A DNA stretch of 64,000 bases from an uncultured Acidimicrobiia bacterium (GTDB lineage: Bacteria > Actinomycetota > Acidimicrobiia > Spongiisociales > UBA5794). A program made the translations under genes and the position numbers. Position 1 is the stretch's first letter, and each line of letters starts with the position of its first letter. Below are positions 1 through 4,469 of the stretch, piece by piece. The notes below the pieces were generated by a model, which saw only the letters and a program-made list of their open reading frames with translations, did not search any database and was not told the origin of the DNA. The DNA is taken from assembly GCA_963821095.1 (NCBI GenBank), contig CAWGCJ010000023.1:42967-106966 (forward strand), in the 5' to 3' direction.

Positions 1-361
1 TGAGGTGGCGAGCTACCAGCAGCCCGGCTCGGGCCCCAATGCAGGCGGCGGCGACATTGGCGTCAGCTTTGCGGGCGGTGCCGCCACCGAGGACTTCGGC
101 GAGGGCCCGGCATTGAGCGCCGCGGGTCCATATCACCCGGGGGGCGCCGTCGTGGGCGTTGTGGCGACTGTCGTTTCGGCGCTGGGCGTCGTCCCGGGTG
201 ATGGGAGGCGCACCGGGGGGCTGAGATGGCGACGGACGGATGTTCCCTAGGTCGGCCCTCGGGGGGGACGGGCCGTTATTCCCGAGCCATGGTTCGCTCC
301 GCCGTCGGGTTCTCGCGGGTGCCTCGCCTAGTTGGCGTTCCGACCTATCCGAGATGCTCAT
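1..361 (-). CDS. Partial hypothetical protein running off the window edge, possible third gene of the DksA/TraR operon
   Basis: Manual translation from ATG at 361 (MSISDRSERQ...CRALAEVLGGGTARKADANVAAACIGARAGLLVARHL) stays open to position 1 and starts 10 nt after the previous stop. Not in the ORF track because the stop lies outside the window. Confidence 0.35.
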   Translation of the reverse strand, partial: MSISDRSERQLGEAPARTRRRSEPWLGNNGPSPPRADLGNIRPSPSQPPGAPPITRDDAQRRNDSRHNAHDGAPRVIWTRGAQCRALAEVLGGGTARKADANVAAACIGARAGLLVARHL

Positions 362-370
362 ACGGTTGTG

Positions 371-685
371 TCATCCCGCGCACTCCCGGCACGTCGTTGT
401 GGCGGGTAGCGCCTCGAGTCGCCTCCCTGTGATCGCTATTCCGCACGCAAAGCACAGCCCATAGACACCCGATGCGATGCGTTCGAGGGCGCCATCGATA
501 CCGGCAAGGCGAGCCTCGATGACATCAGCCTGCATCGCGGCCTCGTCATCGGTGACGTCGTGCGGTTCGTAGTCCCCGCGACTAGTCGCGGCGGCCCGCA
601 GATCCTCGAGCAGAGCTCGCAGTCGGTTCTGTTCGTCGAGGAGCTGCGACTGTTGCCGCCATTCAGATGTGGACAACACCCTCAT
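371..685 (-). CDS. TraR/DksA C4-type zinc-finger protein (second of tandem pair)
   Basis: YGLCFACGIAITGRRLEALPATTTCREC is C-x2-C-x17-C-x2-C after a helical region. ATG at 685 overlaps the upstream stop (ATGA). Confidence 0.85.
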   Translation of the reverse strand: MRVLSTSEWRQQSQLLDEQNRLRALLEDLRAAATSRGDYEPHDVTDDEAAMQADVIEARLAGIDGALERIASGVYGLCFACGIAITGRRLEALPATTTCRECAG

Positions 686-1155
686 CGCCCGACCGCCGGG
701 CCCGACGTGCCACCGACCAGCGGAGATCGCCGACCGGCTCTGTCGGTCGTCTTGCGGTCTGGGCCCACACGGGTGCGTGCGCGGTGTGACGACCGATCGC
801 TGCATGTAACACAGGTCGCAGCCGCCGGCAACGCCCGCAGCCGCTCCAATGGGATGCCCCTCCCGCAAACGGTGCAGTATCCGTACGTTCCGCCGTCCAT
901 ACGTGCCAGCGCCTGCTCAACCTCCCTGAGACGCCGTTCGGCCCGCTCGACCAAGAGCAGAACTACGGCGCCGTCAGAATCCGTCGTTGGATCCTCCTGG
1001 TCGTACATGTCGCTCAGATCCCGCCGGCTGAACGCATCGACGGCCTCACGGCGCAACGCGTCAACCCTTCGTTCTATCGAGGCACGACGATCCAGCAAGA
1101 GGCCAACCAGGGCCGTGGTCGTCGACGGTGCGAAGCGGGGGATTGTGATCACCAT
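682..1155 (-). CDS. TraR/DksA C4-type zinc-finger protein (first of tandem pair)
   Basis: ALARMDGGTYGYCTVCGRGIPLERLRALPAAATCVTC, acidic segment DLSDMYDQED, SD AAAGGAG at 1162-1168. Confidence 0.9.
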   Translation of the reverse strand: MVITIPRFAPSTTTALVGLLLDRRASIERRVDALRREAVDAFSRRDLSDMYDQEDPTTDSDGAVVLLLVERAERRLREVEQALARMDGGTYGYCTVCGRGIPLERLRALPAAATCVTCSDRSSHRARTRVGPDRKTTDRAGRRSPLVGGTSGPAVGR

Positions 1156-1198
1156 GACCGACTCCTTTGACCTTCGTGAGACGCTGATCGTCCATCTG

Positions 1199-1286
1199 CG
1201 AAGGTCTCTCCCGCCCTAGAAAGGGCCAGCAAACCGGGCCATGCGGCCGTACTGACGGCAGTGCTGTTTCGGGATACTCCCCTTGT
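1199..1286 (-). ncRNA. yybP-ykoY (Mn2+-sensing) riboswitch
   Basis: Minus strand reads CAAGGGGAGUAUCCCG-AAA-CAGCACUGCCGUCAGUACGGCCGCAUGGCCCGGUUUGCUG-GCCCUUUCUAGGGC-GGGAGAGACCUU. It has the hallmark GGGGAGUA...GAGACC (P1/L1) and CGUCAGUACG (L3) motifs with pairable stems. Confidence 0.85.
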
Positions 1287-1293
1287 GACGCCA

Positions 1294-1322
1294 AACATAT
1301 CATGAGATAAATGACGTGTCTA
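1294..1322 (-). promoter_or_regulatory. sigmaA-type promoter for the riboswitch/DksA operon, overlapped by an operator-like site (1296-1315)
   Basis: TAGACA (1322-1317) - 17 nt - TATGTT (1299-1294) with extended TG; predicted start falls at the 5' end of the riboswitch. Confidence 0.65.
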
Positions 1323-1532: not shown

Positions 1533-1554
1533 GCCATTTATCTCATGTTATGCT
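1533..1554 (+). promoter_or_regulatory. Second copy of the 20-bp operator-like site, overlapping extended -10 TGtTATGCT of the wHTH gene
   Basis: Reverse complement of 1533-1552 (CATAACATGAGATAAATGGC) matches 1296-1315 (CATATCATGAGATAAATGAC) at 18/20. Confidence 0.7.
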
Positions 1555-1688
1555 TGACTCATAATGGTATGTGTCGACCGGCGCGCCGGGTGGGCAGGGG
1601 CGGTCAGCGCCACACCGCAGAGATTCGGATCGTCTGAGAGATCATCACGTCGGCACCGCACGACCTCGGTACCAAAGAGGGAGCTGCC

Positions 1689-2012
1689 ATAGTCGATCAC
1701 GACCACCGACCATGGACGTTCCTCACGAGCCATGCCCGGGTTCTCATCATCATCTCGCACAACCCGAGCATCCGCGTCCGCGAAATCGCCGCCATTGCCG
1801 GCCTCACCGAGCGCTCCACCCAACGAATCGTCGCCGACCTCGAGGCTGCCGGCTACCTGTGCCACGAGCGGATTGGCCGACGGAACCACTACACGATTAG
1901 GACCGGCGAAACACTGCGTCATCCCCATGAACAGGGCGTTGAGATCGGCCTTCTCCTCGAATTGTTCTCCAACACTTCAAGCAACGCATCGCACAACGAG
2001 GTCCATCGGTAA
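1689..2012 (+). CDS. Winged helix-turn-helix transcriptional regulator (MarR/ArsR-like, 'WTFLTxH' type) with ATA start
   Basis: Manual translation: VDHDHRPWTFLTSHARVLIIISHNPSIRVREIAAIAGLTERSTQRIVADLEAAGYLCHERIGRRNHY...LRHP. SD GAGGGAG lies 5 nt before ATA; no ATG/GTG/TTG in frame after the stop at 1635-1637. Confidence 0.85.
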   Translation: MVDHDHRPWTFLTSHARVLIIISHNPSIRVREIAAIAGLTERSTQRIVADLEAAGYLCHERIGRRNHYTIRTGETLRHPHEQGVEIGLLLELFSNTSSNASHNEVHR

Positions 2013-2170
2013 GGGCCGGTCATCTACTGACCTTGTGCCAGGCCGTACGGCCACGTTCGGGCTGTTGGCCTCAGGTCTGCTGCCCCGGCTGTTGGTGATG
2101 CTCGGTAGTTGCGAGCAGCCACAGGTCCTTCATTCGGTCGATATCGCTCGACGATGCGAGGAGGCATCTG

Positions 2171-2355
2171 ATGAGCTACAGGTGCATCGATTTGATATCA
2201 ACATGGTGACCGATTCCGCCAAGTTGGAGGCGTTCTTGAATGGGCTTGGCGGAGAAGTCGTCTCGATCATTCCCAACGTGAGGAAGACGACCCTTGCTCA
2301 GATCTACGGAGTGACGCGCAAGGTCGATTTCCTCCTCATCGTCGAGCGGACGTAG
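2171..2355 (+). CDS. Small hypothetical protein (~60 aa), probably one base missing near the start
   Basis: SD GAGGAGG then ATG AGC TAC AGG; adding one G gives MSYRVHRFDINMVTDSAKLEAFLNGLGGEVVSIIPNVRKTT...FLLIVERT. Confidence 0.6.
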
Positions 2356-2400: not shown

Positions 2401-4395
2401 TCAGTTCGCTTCGGAGGTGTAACGCTCCATCGCCCGTTGCAGGTCATCCCGGGTGACGGCCATTGCCGACGAGTCGCGTCGCAGTGCCTGCAGCGCCGCT
2501 TCGCGCAGCAACCCGGAGAGGTCTGCAAACGACAACCCCTCGGTGCCCGCGATGACTTCCTCGACATCGACGTCTTCGGCGAATGGGACATGCGAGATTC
2601 CGAAGAAGGCGCGCCGCGATTCCGCCGGCGGCAAACCCAGATAAAGGTGGGTCTCGAGCCTACCCGGTCGGAGCAGCGCAGGATCGACCAGATCTTTGCG
2701 ATTGGTGGCGCCGATGACGAAGACGTCGCCACGTTCGGACACGCCATCCATCTCGGTCAGCAGAGCGGCGACGACCGAGTCGGTGACAGAATTGGTCGAG
2801 TTGCCGCGGACCGGCGCCAGGGCATCGATCTCGTCGAAGAACAGGATGGCGGGCGCCACCGCCCGGGCTCGCGCAAAGACCTCGCGTACCCCGCGTTCGG
2901 ACTCTCCAACGTACTTGTCGAGCAATTCGGCGCCCTTGATGGTGAAGAATGCCGCACCGGACTCGTGGGCAAGCGCTCGGATTACGAACGTCTTGCCGGT
3001 GCCGGGAGGTCCGTGGAGTAGGAGGCCCTTCGGAGGTTCGATCCCGAGCCGGGTGAAGCGCTCCGGCTCCTGCATTTGCCAGATGACCGACTCGGTCAGG
3101 CGCTGCTTGACCTCATCGAGGTTGGCCACGCGTTCGAAGCCGTACGACGGGATCTCGCCGAGCGAAGCGGTACCCAACGACGGGGTCGTTTCGGTGATGG
3201 CGCGCTCGAGAAGATCCTCCGTCACTTCGCCCCCGTTGGTGGCGATGAGGGCTGAGGCGTGCACCACGGTGGAGATGACGTCGGCGCCCGAGAAGCCGGC
3301 GGTGCGATTGGCCAGGTTGGCGAATTCGATCTCTGCGGTCGGCACCTGAGCCAACGCCGACTCGAACAGCAGGGTGCGCCGCTCGAGGTCGGGGGGTGGG
3401 ATCGAAAGCGTCCGCGGCAACAGTGCCGAGTCGGCAACGGCATCGGGGAGCTTGGTCACCGACGAGATGGCGAGTACGCAAGCCAGGCGCGGACGATCGG
3501 CGACTGCGTCCAGGAACCAACGCAGTATGGCGGTCATCTGATTGCGGAACATGGCGTCGTCCCCGGCGACGGCGTCGAGGCGGTCGACAAAGATGACCGC
3601 AGGCACGGTCGTGTTCTTGACCGCCTTTTCGAGTAGTTCGAGCAGCTTGTCCGGCTTGAACACCAACTCGAGCGAGACTTCGTGCACTTTGGCGCCGGCT
3701 GCCTCCGCCGCGGCGTTGACCAGTTCCGACTTGCCGCAACCTGCCGGTCCTTCGATGAGTACGCCGGCCACCTTGGGCAGGCCCCAGGTGCTCGGCAGAT
3801 TCTGCGGCGAGGTCAGCAGCGACAGCCAACCCGTCATAGTCTCGAGTTCGGCATCGAGTCCGGCCAAGAGCGCCTCTGCCGTGGTCGGCGCCTCTCCGGC
3901 CGGCTGGCCCTCTGGCTGGGCGACCACGGCGGGCGGGGCCTCCCCCTCCTCATAGACGACGGTGCCGTTGCCGACCATGCCGGCCGGGCCGGGCACGACA
4001 TCCACCACCCGGAGTTCGACGTCTCCGGTCGAACCGCCGTCCCCGTACGAGGCCCGAACGACCACCATATCGCCGGCCGTGACCGGAGTGCCCTGAAGCG
4101 ATCGGGCGAGATGACGGGAGTCGAGTCGCTCATCTGTCGACGAGAGGACGACCCGCGATGCCTGGGGGAGGGGGGCACGCTGCACGTCCGGGTTGTCGCC
4201 GACGGCGAGACCGGCATTGTGCAGAGTGCGCGGTCCAACGGTGAGACCGTTGGCGGAGCCAACGTCGCCGGGCATGACGACGGCGTGGGTGTTGCCGAGT
4301 TTGATGACTCCACCGCCGGGGAGACCCATCACGGTCAAGAGGGCGGAGTCGGCGCGGGCCTGAGGGTCCGTGCCGGGACGCAGTACAAATCGCAT
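2401..4395 (-). CDS. Cdc48/p97-like tandem AAA+ ATPase (Cpa-like)
   Basis: N-domain plus two AAA modules: GPAGCGKS...IFVDRLD and GPPGTGKT...LFFDEID, SRH ATNRKDLVDPALLRPGRL. Start placed at MRFVLR, 8 nt after -10-like TAGCCT. Confidence 0.88.
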   Translation of the reverse strand: MRFVLRPGTDPQARADSALLTVMGLPGGGVIKLGNTHAVVMPGDVGSANGLTVGPRTLHNAGLAVGDNPDVQRAPLPQASRVVLSSTDERLDSRHLARSLQGTPVTAGDMVVVRASYGDGGSTGDVELRVVDVVPGPAGMVGNGTVVYEEGEAPPAVVAQPEGQPAGEAPTTAEALLAGLDAELETMTGWLSLLTSPQNLPSTWGLPKVAGVLIEGPAGCGKSELVNAAAEAAGAKVHEVSLELVFKPDKLLELLEKAVKNTTVPAVIFVDRLDAVAGDDAMFRNQMTAILRWFLDAVADRPRLACVLAISSVTKLPDAVADSALLPRTLSIPPPDLERRTLLFESALAQVPTAEIEFANLANRTAGFSGADVISTVVHASALIATNGGEVTEDLLERAITETTPSLGTASLGEIPSYGFERVANLDEVKQRLTESVIWQMQEPERFTRLGIEPPKGLLLHGPPGTGKTFVIRALAHESGAAFFTIKGAELLDKYVGESERGVREVFARARAVAPAILFFDEIDALAPVRGNSTNSVTDSVVAALLTEMDGVSERGDVFVIGATNRKDLVDPALLRPGRLETHLYLGLPPAESRRAFFGISHVPFAEDVDVEEVIAGTEGLSFADLSGLLREAALQALRRDSSAMAVTRDDLQRAMERYTSEAN

Positions 4396-4469
4396 GAGGG
4401 TGCAGGCTACTCCGCCGGACGCAGTTGACATCGGTGCCATAGCCGGCAGCGGTCCGACCACCCGATTGG

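Follow-up and report, generated by a model that had tools for sequence, protein, structure and literature searches.

Why should a leader RNA that resembles a Mn2+ riboswitch stand in front of two genes for DksA/TraR-type zinc-finger proteins? The question is raised by one end of a stretch of 64,000 nucleotides (nt) from an uncultured Acidimicrobiia bacterium (G000:C23:42967-106966, contig C23 of genome G000), the whole of which is called the window; coordinates are window coordinates unless a contig or locus is named, and the leader and its genes, zf1 and zf2, lie on the minus strand. The two founding papers on this kind of riboswitch are Dambach 2015 and Price 2015. PMC11672702, in the sections consulted here, describes Mn2+ riboswitches as ON switches that serve exporters as a fail-safe. 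An earlier note, made from the sequence of the window without database searches, had proposed that such a riboswitch controls the zinc-finger genes. Our analysis makes it probable that a yybP-ykoY-family Mn2+ ON switch leads an operon of DksA-like and CBS-domain genes at this locus, and the link between riboswitch and zinc-finger genes is conserved in the order.

Aptamer structure and family

Close relatives of the zf1 protein are encoded in several genomes of the order, and a paralogue in the same genome; the leader common to them reads AAGGGGAGUAUCCC ... CCGUCAnnACGG-hairpin-CCGG ... hairpin ... GGGAGAGACCUUC. In the RNAalifold fold of nine such leaders, P1.1 and P1.2 are separated by an internal loop and lead to a three-way junction, from which two hairpin arms extend; a 7-nt bulge lies in one arm. 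Taken alone, the 94 nt from the window also adopt this aptamer structure as their minimum-free-energy fold. A covariance model, R1, was built from 9 zinc-finger-linked leaders only. It places the aptamer at 1288-1195 with 99.6 bits, where the earlier note had seen a yybP-ykoY-like element at 1286-1199, and it also matches mntP, alx and dozens of TerC and P-type-ATPase leaders. Genomes G027 and G038 were included in the search for relatives, G027 having no R1 match, and no locus or claim rests on either. The parts of the system are the following:

1322-1294, minus strand: promoter, with -35 box TAGACA (1322-1317), a 17-nt spacer and -10 box TATGTT (1299-1294) preceded by TG (TG-n-TATGTT)
1288-1195, minus strand: aptamer of the Mn2+ (yybP-ykoY) family, three-way-junction alx-like form, 94 nt
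1284-1281 and 1204-1201, minus strand: P1.1, AAGG paired with CCUU
1280-1275 and 1208-1205, minus strand: L1, GGAGUA and GAGA
1274-1271 and 1212-1209, minus strand: P1.2, UCCC paired with GGGA
1259-1256 and 1236-1233, minus strand: P3, in which the outer stem is followed by GCCG paired with CGGU
1255-1249, minus strand: L3 bulge UCAGUAC, candidate metal-contacting A at 1253
1248-1237, minus strand: P3.2 hairpin
1226-1213, minus strand: P4 hairpin
1206-1169, minus strand: expression platform, in which CGAAGGUC (1176-1169) is the partner of GACCUUCG (1206-1199, holding the 3' strand of P1.1) and an inner hairpin lies between the two
1168-1153, minus strand: Shine-Dalgarno sequence AAAGGAG (1168-1162) and ATG (1155-1153) of zf1
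1155-682, minus strand: zf1 (open reading frame, ORF, 1), 157 amino acids
685-371, minus strand: zf2 (ORF2), 104 amino acids, its ATG overlapping the zf1 stop as ATGA
1-361, minus strand: 5' part of a CBS-domain gene, third of the operon, continuing leftward beyond the window, start codon uncertain

In 103 matches (102 distinct) from many lineages, 97.1% of the cells pair, both-sided changes are found in 13 of 20 pairs (268 cells), none of 500 shuffles is as good, and pairing falls to 31-62% when the partners are slid, all in an alignment that was fitted to R1 and is therefore biased towards the structure. L1, with GGGGAGUA on its 5' side and GAGA(CC) on its 3' side between P1.1 and P1.2, is invariant in the nine-leader alignment, and its columns align one-to-one with those of E. 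coli mntP and alx. Zinc-finger-linked and TerC-linked leaders do not differ in L1 (GGGAGUAU and GAGA) or L3 (UCAGUAC), the L3 of the window being present in 11 TerC-linked leaders, with the metal-contacting A judged at the sequence level only. On a 6-kb E. coli locus, the best R1 match is the mntP riboswitch (2464-2576, 13.1 bits, expectation value (E) 0.025), overlapping the match of the Rfam model RF00080 at 2462-2558 in the same P1/L1/P1.2 frame (UUUGGGGAGUAGCC ... GGCGAGACC), and on the alx locus it is the alx leader (7.9 bits, E 0.81, CGUCAUUACG aligned to CGUCAGUACG), the E-values of R1 being rough.

As described in the consulted sections of PMC12153347 and PMC11672702, Mn2+ riboswitches have two legs, a metal site made of L1 and L3, an L3 adenosine that contacts Mn2+, and a switch helix P1.1. 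According to the former, alx lacks P2 and thereby forms a three-way junction, with an L3 consensus of UCAUUAC against ACAUACU in the family. The window RNA shares with alx the missing P2, the three-way junction, an L1 of GGAGUA and GAGA, a 7-nt L3 bulge starting U-C-A (UCAUUAC in alx, UCAGUAC in the window) and a P1.1 3' strand common to aptamer and expression platform; moreover, the TerC-family gene downstream of alx is what most of the wider actinobacterial group has. It differs from alx in its cargo of two DksA-like genes and a CBS-domain gene, in having no terminator inside P4, and in being G+C-rich and 94 nt long. With the Mn2+ riboswitches of E. coli mntP, Lactococcus and Xanthomonas it shares the P1.1/L1/P1.2 frame, seen in the alignment of R1 with mntP, and presumably the ON logic in which Mn2+ holds P1.1 (consulted sections of PMC12153347 and PMC11672702); those RNAs differ in their four-way junction with P2 and an L3 of ACAUACU (the RF00080 type), and RF00080 gives the window RNA no score. 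Taken together, these comparisons identify the leader at 1288-1195 as a genuine member of the yybP-ykoY Mn2+ family in its alx-like three-way-junction form, and the earlier note's mention of alx proved apt.

This form extends far beyond the window. A strict motif pattern, with one genome per species, finds at least 116 stretches. Besides many metagenome-assembled genomes, they come from Kocuria, Arthrobacter, Nocardioides, Actinomadura, Microbispora, Geodermatophilus and Pseudonocardia, with a few in Chloroflexota and Acidobacteria. R1 reaches about 100 leaders across Actinomycetota. Downstream genes were scored for 81 matches in 80 loci among the matches listed: TerC comes first in 61, a P-type ATPase in 4, a universal stress protein (USP) gene plus ATPase in 1 and a zinc-finger pair in 1 (an Acidimicrobiaceae genome, the single such case outside the order), while 13 have other genes and 1 has no downstream sequence. 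Other orders of the class contributed 23 new loci, where TerC follows in 6 and a P-type ATPase in 13, with 4 unassigned. The actinobacterial TerC leaders (L083-L162, from the named Actinomycetota and others) are without P2, have a three-way junction and carry an L3 of UCAnnAC. In Actinomycetota, TerC leaders appear to be usually of the alx-like form, which is probably under-counted there since it escapes the Rfam model; in contrast, the consulted part of PMC12153347 states that alx-like riboswitches exist in Enterobacteriales only.

Unexpected cargo is found elsewhere too. The same riboswitch type stands before a protein with a GreA/GreB C-terminal domain, another RNA polymerase secondary-channel type, and before Zn_ribbon_TFIIB, baeRF family 3, AMP-binding enzymes and an MT0933-like antitoxin protein. 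The loci with unexpected cargo are L100 (805-1272), L103 (954-1298), L108 (129-1145), L102 (5465-7348), L151 (4673-4957), L113, L145, L125, L128, L146 and L112, of which L112, L113, L145, L125, L128 and L146 were likened by eye to the scanned ones.

Conservation of the link to zinc-finger genes

R1 matches were found in 31 of the 151 genomes sampled from the order and in 52 of the 151 from the class. Within the order, 40 matches in 38 loci were checked, including second copies and two added relatives, and zf1 is the first gene after 17 of them (14 genomes, several families); the others are followed by TerC (14), USP (4), a P-type ATPase (2, one after a zf1 remnant), a CBS-type gene (1), a CaCA antiporter (1) or nothing recognisable (1). 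The survey for this riboswitch before zf-dskA_traR genes, which the earlier note had called for, thus yielded a recurrent association. Where tested (14 loci), zf2 follows zf1 with an ATGA overlap in 8, after a gap of 37-43 nt by start codon in 1, and is absent from 5.

The G000 genome itself has five R1 copies:

Copy a, the leader of the window: zf1, zf2, CBS-domain gene, then an opposite-strand gene
Copy b, C23:279343-279439: zf1, zf2, CBS/BON, tandem USP, P-type ATPase
Copy c, C23:281704-281797: CBS-type gene
Copy d, C7:293187-293281: short N-terminal remnant of zf1, followed by a tandem USP gene
Copy e, C7:294559-294653: short N-terminal remnant of zf1, followed by a tandem USP gene

Copies d and e (L078, C7:293187-294653) are each followed by a short ORF starting like zf1 (MATTTAR..., MATAMPQCAPATTT...), and it would seem that promoter, leader and first codons were copied as one module. 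Six zf-dskA_traR domains are present in this genome, four of them in the two riboswitch-led pairs, and no TerC domain was found in it (89.8% complete).

Among 14 zinc-finger-led stretches of 4.4-6.9 kb, a clear P-type ATPase lies downstream in 4 (G000b, G002b, G004 and G016), weak ATPase fragments in 1 (G034) and no ATPase in 9; G042b, outside these 14 stretches, is a fifth zinc-finger-led case with a P-type ATPase. The gene orders point to efflux operons as one home of the zinc-finger genes. The earlier note had suggested that RNA polymerase-binding or metal-binding factors may be controlled here rather than a transporter. The lack of a transporter holds for the window's own locus, where extending the operon leftwards brought the CBS-domain gene and then an opposite-strand gene and no transporter, so that a TerC- or MntP-type gene with unconserved zinc fingers does not account for the riboswitch here; it does not hold for the paralogous operon and at least four others, which end in a P-type ATPase. 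The sister operons thereby resemble pneumococcal mgtA and lactococcal yoaB, where a Mn2+ riboswitch precedes a P-type ATPase, since they end in a P2-type ATPase (Cation_ATPase_N and E1-E2_ATPase); they differ in placing two to four zinc-finger, CBS/BON and USP genes before the pump, which is missing altogether at the window's locus.

The zinc-finger proteins

Both proteins carry the coupled C-x2-C-x17-C-x2-C motif that had been noticed in the sequence, as CTVC-x17-CVTC in zf1 and CFAC-x17-CREC in zf2, with cysteines invariant in the alignments of either protein. The Pfam family PF01258 (zf-dskA_traR) matches zf1 with 40.3 bits (cut-off 24.9) and zf2 with 23.5 bits as an ORF and 29.7 bits in a six-frame genome search, and in NCBIfam both come near the DksA-like and YteA models, under their cut-offs. 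An AlphaFold model of zf1, from an alignment of 15 orthologues, has a mean predicted local distance difference test (pLDDT) score of 75.7 and comprises a helical hairpin (10-43 and 60-88, pLDDT mostly above 88), a zinc domain and a disordered tail from residue 129. In Foldseek, the top match of this model is DksA2 (4ijj, E 1.4e-6, template modelling (TM) scores 0.64/0.76), and the matches further include 1tjl, which is E. coli DksA, and DksA chains of RNA polymerase complexes. The model shows a DksA-like fold for zf1.

With DksA (E. coli), DksA2 (P. aeruginosa), TraR and YteA/YlyA, the two proteins have in common the C4 zinc finger and the Pfam and NCBIfam matches, to which zf1 adds the long helical hairpin, acidic residues at its tip and Foldseek TM scores of 0.64-0.76 to 4ijj and 1tjl. 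They stand apart in scoring under the NCBIfam equivalog cut-offs and in forming a translationally coupled pair, and zf1 differs from DksA in its D-x-x-D-(E/D) tip and a 30-residue disordered tail. The tip region of zf2 reads H-D-V-T-D-D-E-A-A, and zf2 keeps DYEPHDVTDDEAA. A complex prediction for zf1 and zf2 gave a score of 0.00 and carries no weight for or against a heterodimer. Some Gram-positive DksA-like proteins (YlyA) bind RNA polymerase. For zf1 and zf2 such binding is suggested by family and fold, and we would put its chance somewhat below even.

Expression platform and proposed mechanism

The promoter at 1322-1294, which the earlier note had already drawn as leading into the aptamer, is the only sigma-70-like site in 1-2500, where shuffles expect 0.4, and the same -35/-10 layout recurs at all four further leaders of the genome and likewise in G002, G034 and G016. 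Since the -10 box ends 8-11 nt ahead of P1.1 in the leaders compared, the transcript should start at the aptamer. The alternative pairing of the P1 3' strand next to the Shine-Dalgarno sequence, likewise anticipated, was recovered as an anti-P1 hairpin of GACCUUCG and CGAAGGUC with -17.3 kcal/mol and a z-score of -3.2, which is equalled by 1 of 200 shuffles and is mutually exclusive with P1.1. The same design with a near-identical inner sequence is found at copies b, c and e of G000 and in G002a/b, G012 and G004. The inner hairpin part GACGAUCAnCGUCUCA is conserved in sequence among paralogues, which hints at a further constraint.

In the mechanism that we propose, transcription would start a few bases upstream of P1.1. 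With the metal site between L1 and L3 filled, P1.1 (AAGG/CCUU) would be held; with the site empty, its 3' strand would be captured by CGAAGGUC in the hairpin of -17 kcal/mol abutting the Shine-Dalgarno sequence. High Mn2+ would then most likely lead to more expression of the two DksA-like zinc-finger proteins and the CBS-domain protein, and a divergently encoded MarR-type repressor probably adds control at the promoter. By analogy with the family, Mn2+ is probably the ligand, and the ON direction of the switch is favoured with less assurance. Shine-Dalgarno accessibility, modelled by folding for 23 leaders with the aptamer either free or enforced, gains at least 0.10 in 13 of 18 non-TerC leaders and at least 0.20 in 4 of 5 TerC leaders.

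Contrary evidence and alternative explanations

A number of observations weigh against this interpretation. The leader of the window shows no modelled unmasking of its Shine-Dalgarno sequence, the accessibility being 0.69 with the aptamer free and 0.58 with the aptamer enforced, and the other non-TerC leaders without a gain are L047/G012 (+0.06), L014/G002a (0.00), L059/G089 (-0.05) and L052/G004 (-0.21). The hairpin design of the window, which ends one base before the Shine-Dalgarno sequence, is present in L047, L014 and L052, not in L059, and L044 (G002b), of the same design, gains 0.10 only. There is no U-tract after the anti-P1 hairpin. Because modelled unmasking and a U-tract are both lacking, the regulated step is unexplained for the window copy: simple sequestration of the Shine-Dalgarno sequence is unsupported by the folding, no intrinsic terminator was detected after the aptamer on the minus strand, and regulation could act on ribosome access beside a stable helix or on termination without a U-tract. 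Moreover, the ligand is assigned through aptamer similarity alone because the window operon encodes no Mn2+ transporter; R1 matches mntP and alx of E. coli only weakly, and the fitted alignment favours the structure, as stated above. The hairpin loop of zf1 has an invariant S48-D49-x-x-D52, then E or D, at the place of the D-x-x-D-x-A that forms the acidic-tip motif of DksA. Support for transcription is confined to one RNA-library contig of 151 nt (salt-marsh metatranscriptome, run X20), identical to window 1121-1271 and covering the aptamer interior through the first zf1 codons, a weak hint of expression at most; contigs give no start, end or strand, and such RNA libraries may contain DNA. 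The run search brought up 20 runs, with one RNA run of small share among them; four runs were compared with the window, and the parts left uncovered carry no weight.

The Rfam match whose absence the earlier note had named as refuting was also lacking. RF00080 (Rfam 15) has no match over the whole window at the gathering score (cut-off 45 bits), Rfam 15 gives none on 1000-1600 even at E<=10, and a genome-wide search with RF00080 returned nothing at the window's leader. The controls behave alike: E. coli mntP scores 41.6 bits (L077 2462-2558), under the 45-bit cut-off; the E. coli alx leader (L236 3382-3494) is unmatched at E<=10; out of 7 named actinobacterial TerC leaders, 6 have no match at E<=10 and that of Pseudonocardia has a sub-threshold one on the R1 site (24.3 bits, E 0.011); and none of 10 tested loci of the window's order is matched at E<=10. 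Leaders of the three-way-junction type escape the Rfam 15 model RF00080, whose consensus leaves the 5' and 3' P1 strands unpaired. Because the model fails on mntP and alx, which are proven members, the missing match cannot decide the family and is uninformative, and Rfam was discarded as an arbiter; the core of the earlier note's reading finds its support in the comparative evidence instead.

The following features bear on the control of the promoter:

1644-2012, plus strand: MarR-type winged-helix regulator gene, divergent, with no in-frame ATG, GTG or TTG near its 5' end
1535-1556, plus strand: second copy of a 22-nt promoter/operator element, located before the MarR-type gene and inverted relative to 1292-1313

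The copies of the 22-nt element at 1292-1313 (minus) and 1535-1556 (plus) are 91% complementary and lie at two divergent promoters. A reading of this inverted repeat as a mobile element was dropped, since its 13-nt core has just two exact copies in the genome, both at the divergent promoters. The promoter spacers of the sister leaders contain CACG-N10-CGTG (read by eye), of which the spacer at 1322-1294 holds a degenerate copy, and this inverted repeat is likely an operator.

It might be supposed that the divergent MarR-type repressor is the main control and the leader a conserved ligand-independent structure or a decaying copy, given that MarR-type genes are divergent to copies a, b and e and that the spacers carry the inverted repeat. 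The five copies, however, retain every helix and both loop motifs, with stems that differ by paired changes between copies whose zf1 paralogues are 62% identical, and the aptamer is kept in 14 genomes, which makes this view very improbable. The same fold could serve another or an additional signal, such as Ca2+, Fe2+, free Mg2+ or cytoplasmic alkalinity, which would suit stress-related USP, CBS and DksA-like cargo. Indeed, the cargo is not metal transport, the L3 starts with U as in alx, a U for which a role in the pH effect is proposed in the consulted part of PMC12153347, and a pneumococcal member of the family responds to Ca2+ as well, according to that of PMC11672702. Nevertheless, leaders linked to TerC and to ATPases, in this lineage and in others, have the very same L1 and L3 motifs, and the pH response of E. 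coli alx still requires the Mn-contacting adenosine (consulted part of PMC12153347); we hold a different or additional signal to be quite unlikely.

It is also conceivable that the Mn2+ switch works as proposed and that the zinc-finger proteins are accessory or metal-handling parts of an efflux operon, the window being a duplicated front that lost the pump. The order zf1-(zf2)-(CBS/BON)-USP-P-type ATPase in operon b, G002b, G004, G016 and G042b would fit, as would the zf1 N-terminus remnants before USP genes at copies d and e, which suggest that the leader was copied as a module. Against this stand the 9 of 14 zinc-finger-led stretches without an ATPase and the complete DksA fold of zf1, whose top matches, DksA2 and DksA, include chains of RNA polymerase complexes and whose D-x-x-D tip is invariant, so that we regard a mere accessory role as unlikely. 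The reading of the leader as a Mn2+ ON switch for DksA-like and CBS-domain genes is the one that we prefer.

Significance

The RNA class and its alx-like shape are already known; what appears to be new is the conserved wiring to DksA/TraR, USP and CBS/BON genes and the several copies per genome. A search of open-access papers and bioRxiv found no paper linking this riboswitch to DksA/TraR, USP or CBS/BON genes, nor one on its multiplication within a genome, although supplementary gene-context tables, Rfam or RegPrecise may list such contexts; the earlier note had been unaware of any description too. The mycobacterial DosR regulon co-regulates USP, a CBS protein and a P2-type ATPase. A conserved wiring in multiple copies suggests an input of metal status into transcription or stress physiology in this little-studied lineage of actinobacteria, and it gives experiments a way into the role of the DksA/TraR proteins of actinobacteria. 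In the widest version of this idea, which we consider doubtful, an alx-type Mn2+ (perhaps pH) riboswitch and a MarR-type repressor would together control, in an Acidimicrobiia-like group, two DksA-like RNA polymerase secondary-channel factors along with USP and CBS/BON stress proteins, and a rise in free Mn2+ or divalent cations would be signalled directly to the transcription machinery and a dormancy-like stress programme, beyond a pump. If true, RNA-polymerase-binding factors would for the first time be known to stand under riboswitch control.

Neighbouring features

The third gene of the operon has a Pfam CBS match (E 8.2e-10), the sole Pfam domain found there, and is 42% identical (tblastn) to the gene behind copy c; the name 'USP-CBS', based on a motif read by eye, was dropped as Pfam detects CBS alone. 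Between the MarR-type gene and an AAA+ gene, an open frame at 2101-2355 (plus strand) has a well-formed end stretch of 50-80 residues (…MVTDSAKLEAFLNGLGGEVVSIIPNVRK…) and no Pfam match at E<=0.1. The AAA+ gene, at 2401-4461, upstream of the operon and on the same strand (minus), encodes an AAA+ ATPase of the CDC48/VCP type with two domains (686 amino acids, AAA 186 bits, a trace of CDC48_2). In the intergenic region, at 1352-1385, a 17-nt unit (GCTCGTATCCCCGGACG) is directly repeated in tandem, its two copies being 94% alike, and a 553-nt metagenome contig (run X7) is without one 17-nt copy, so that the copy number varies among related populations.

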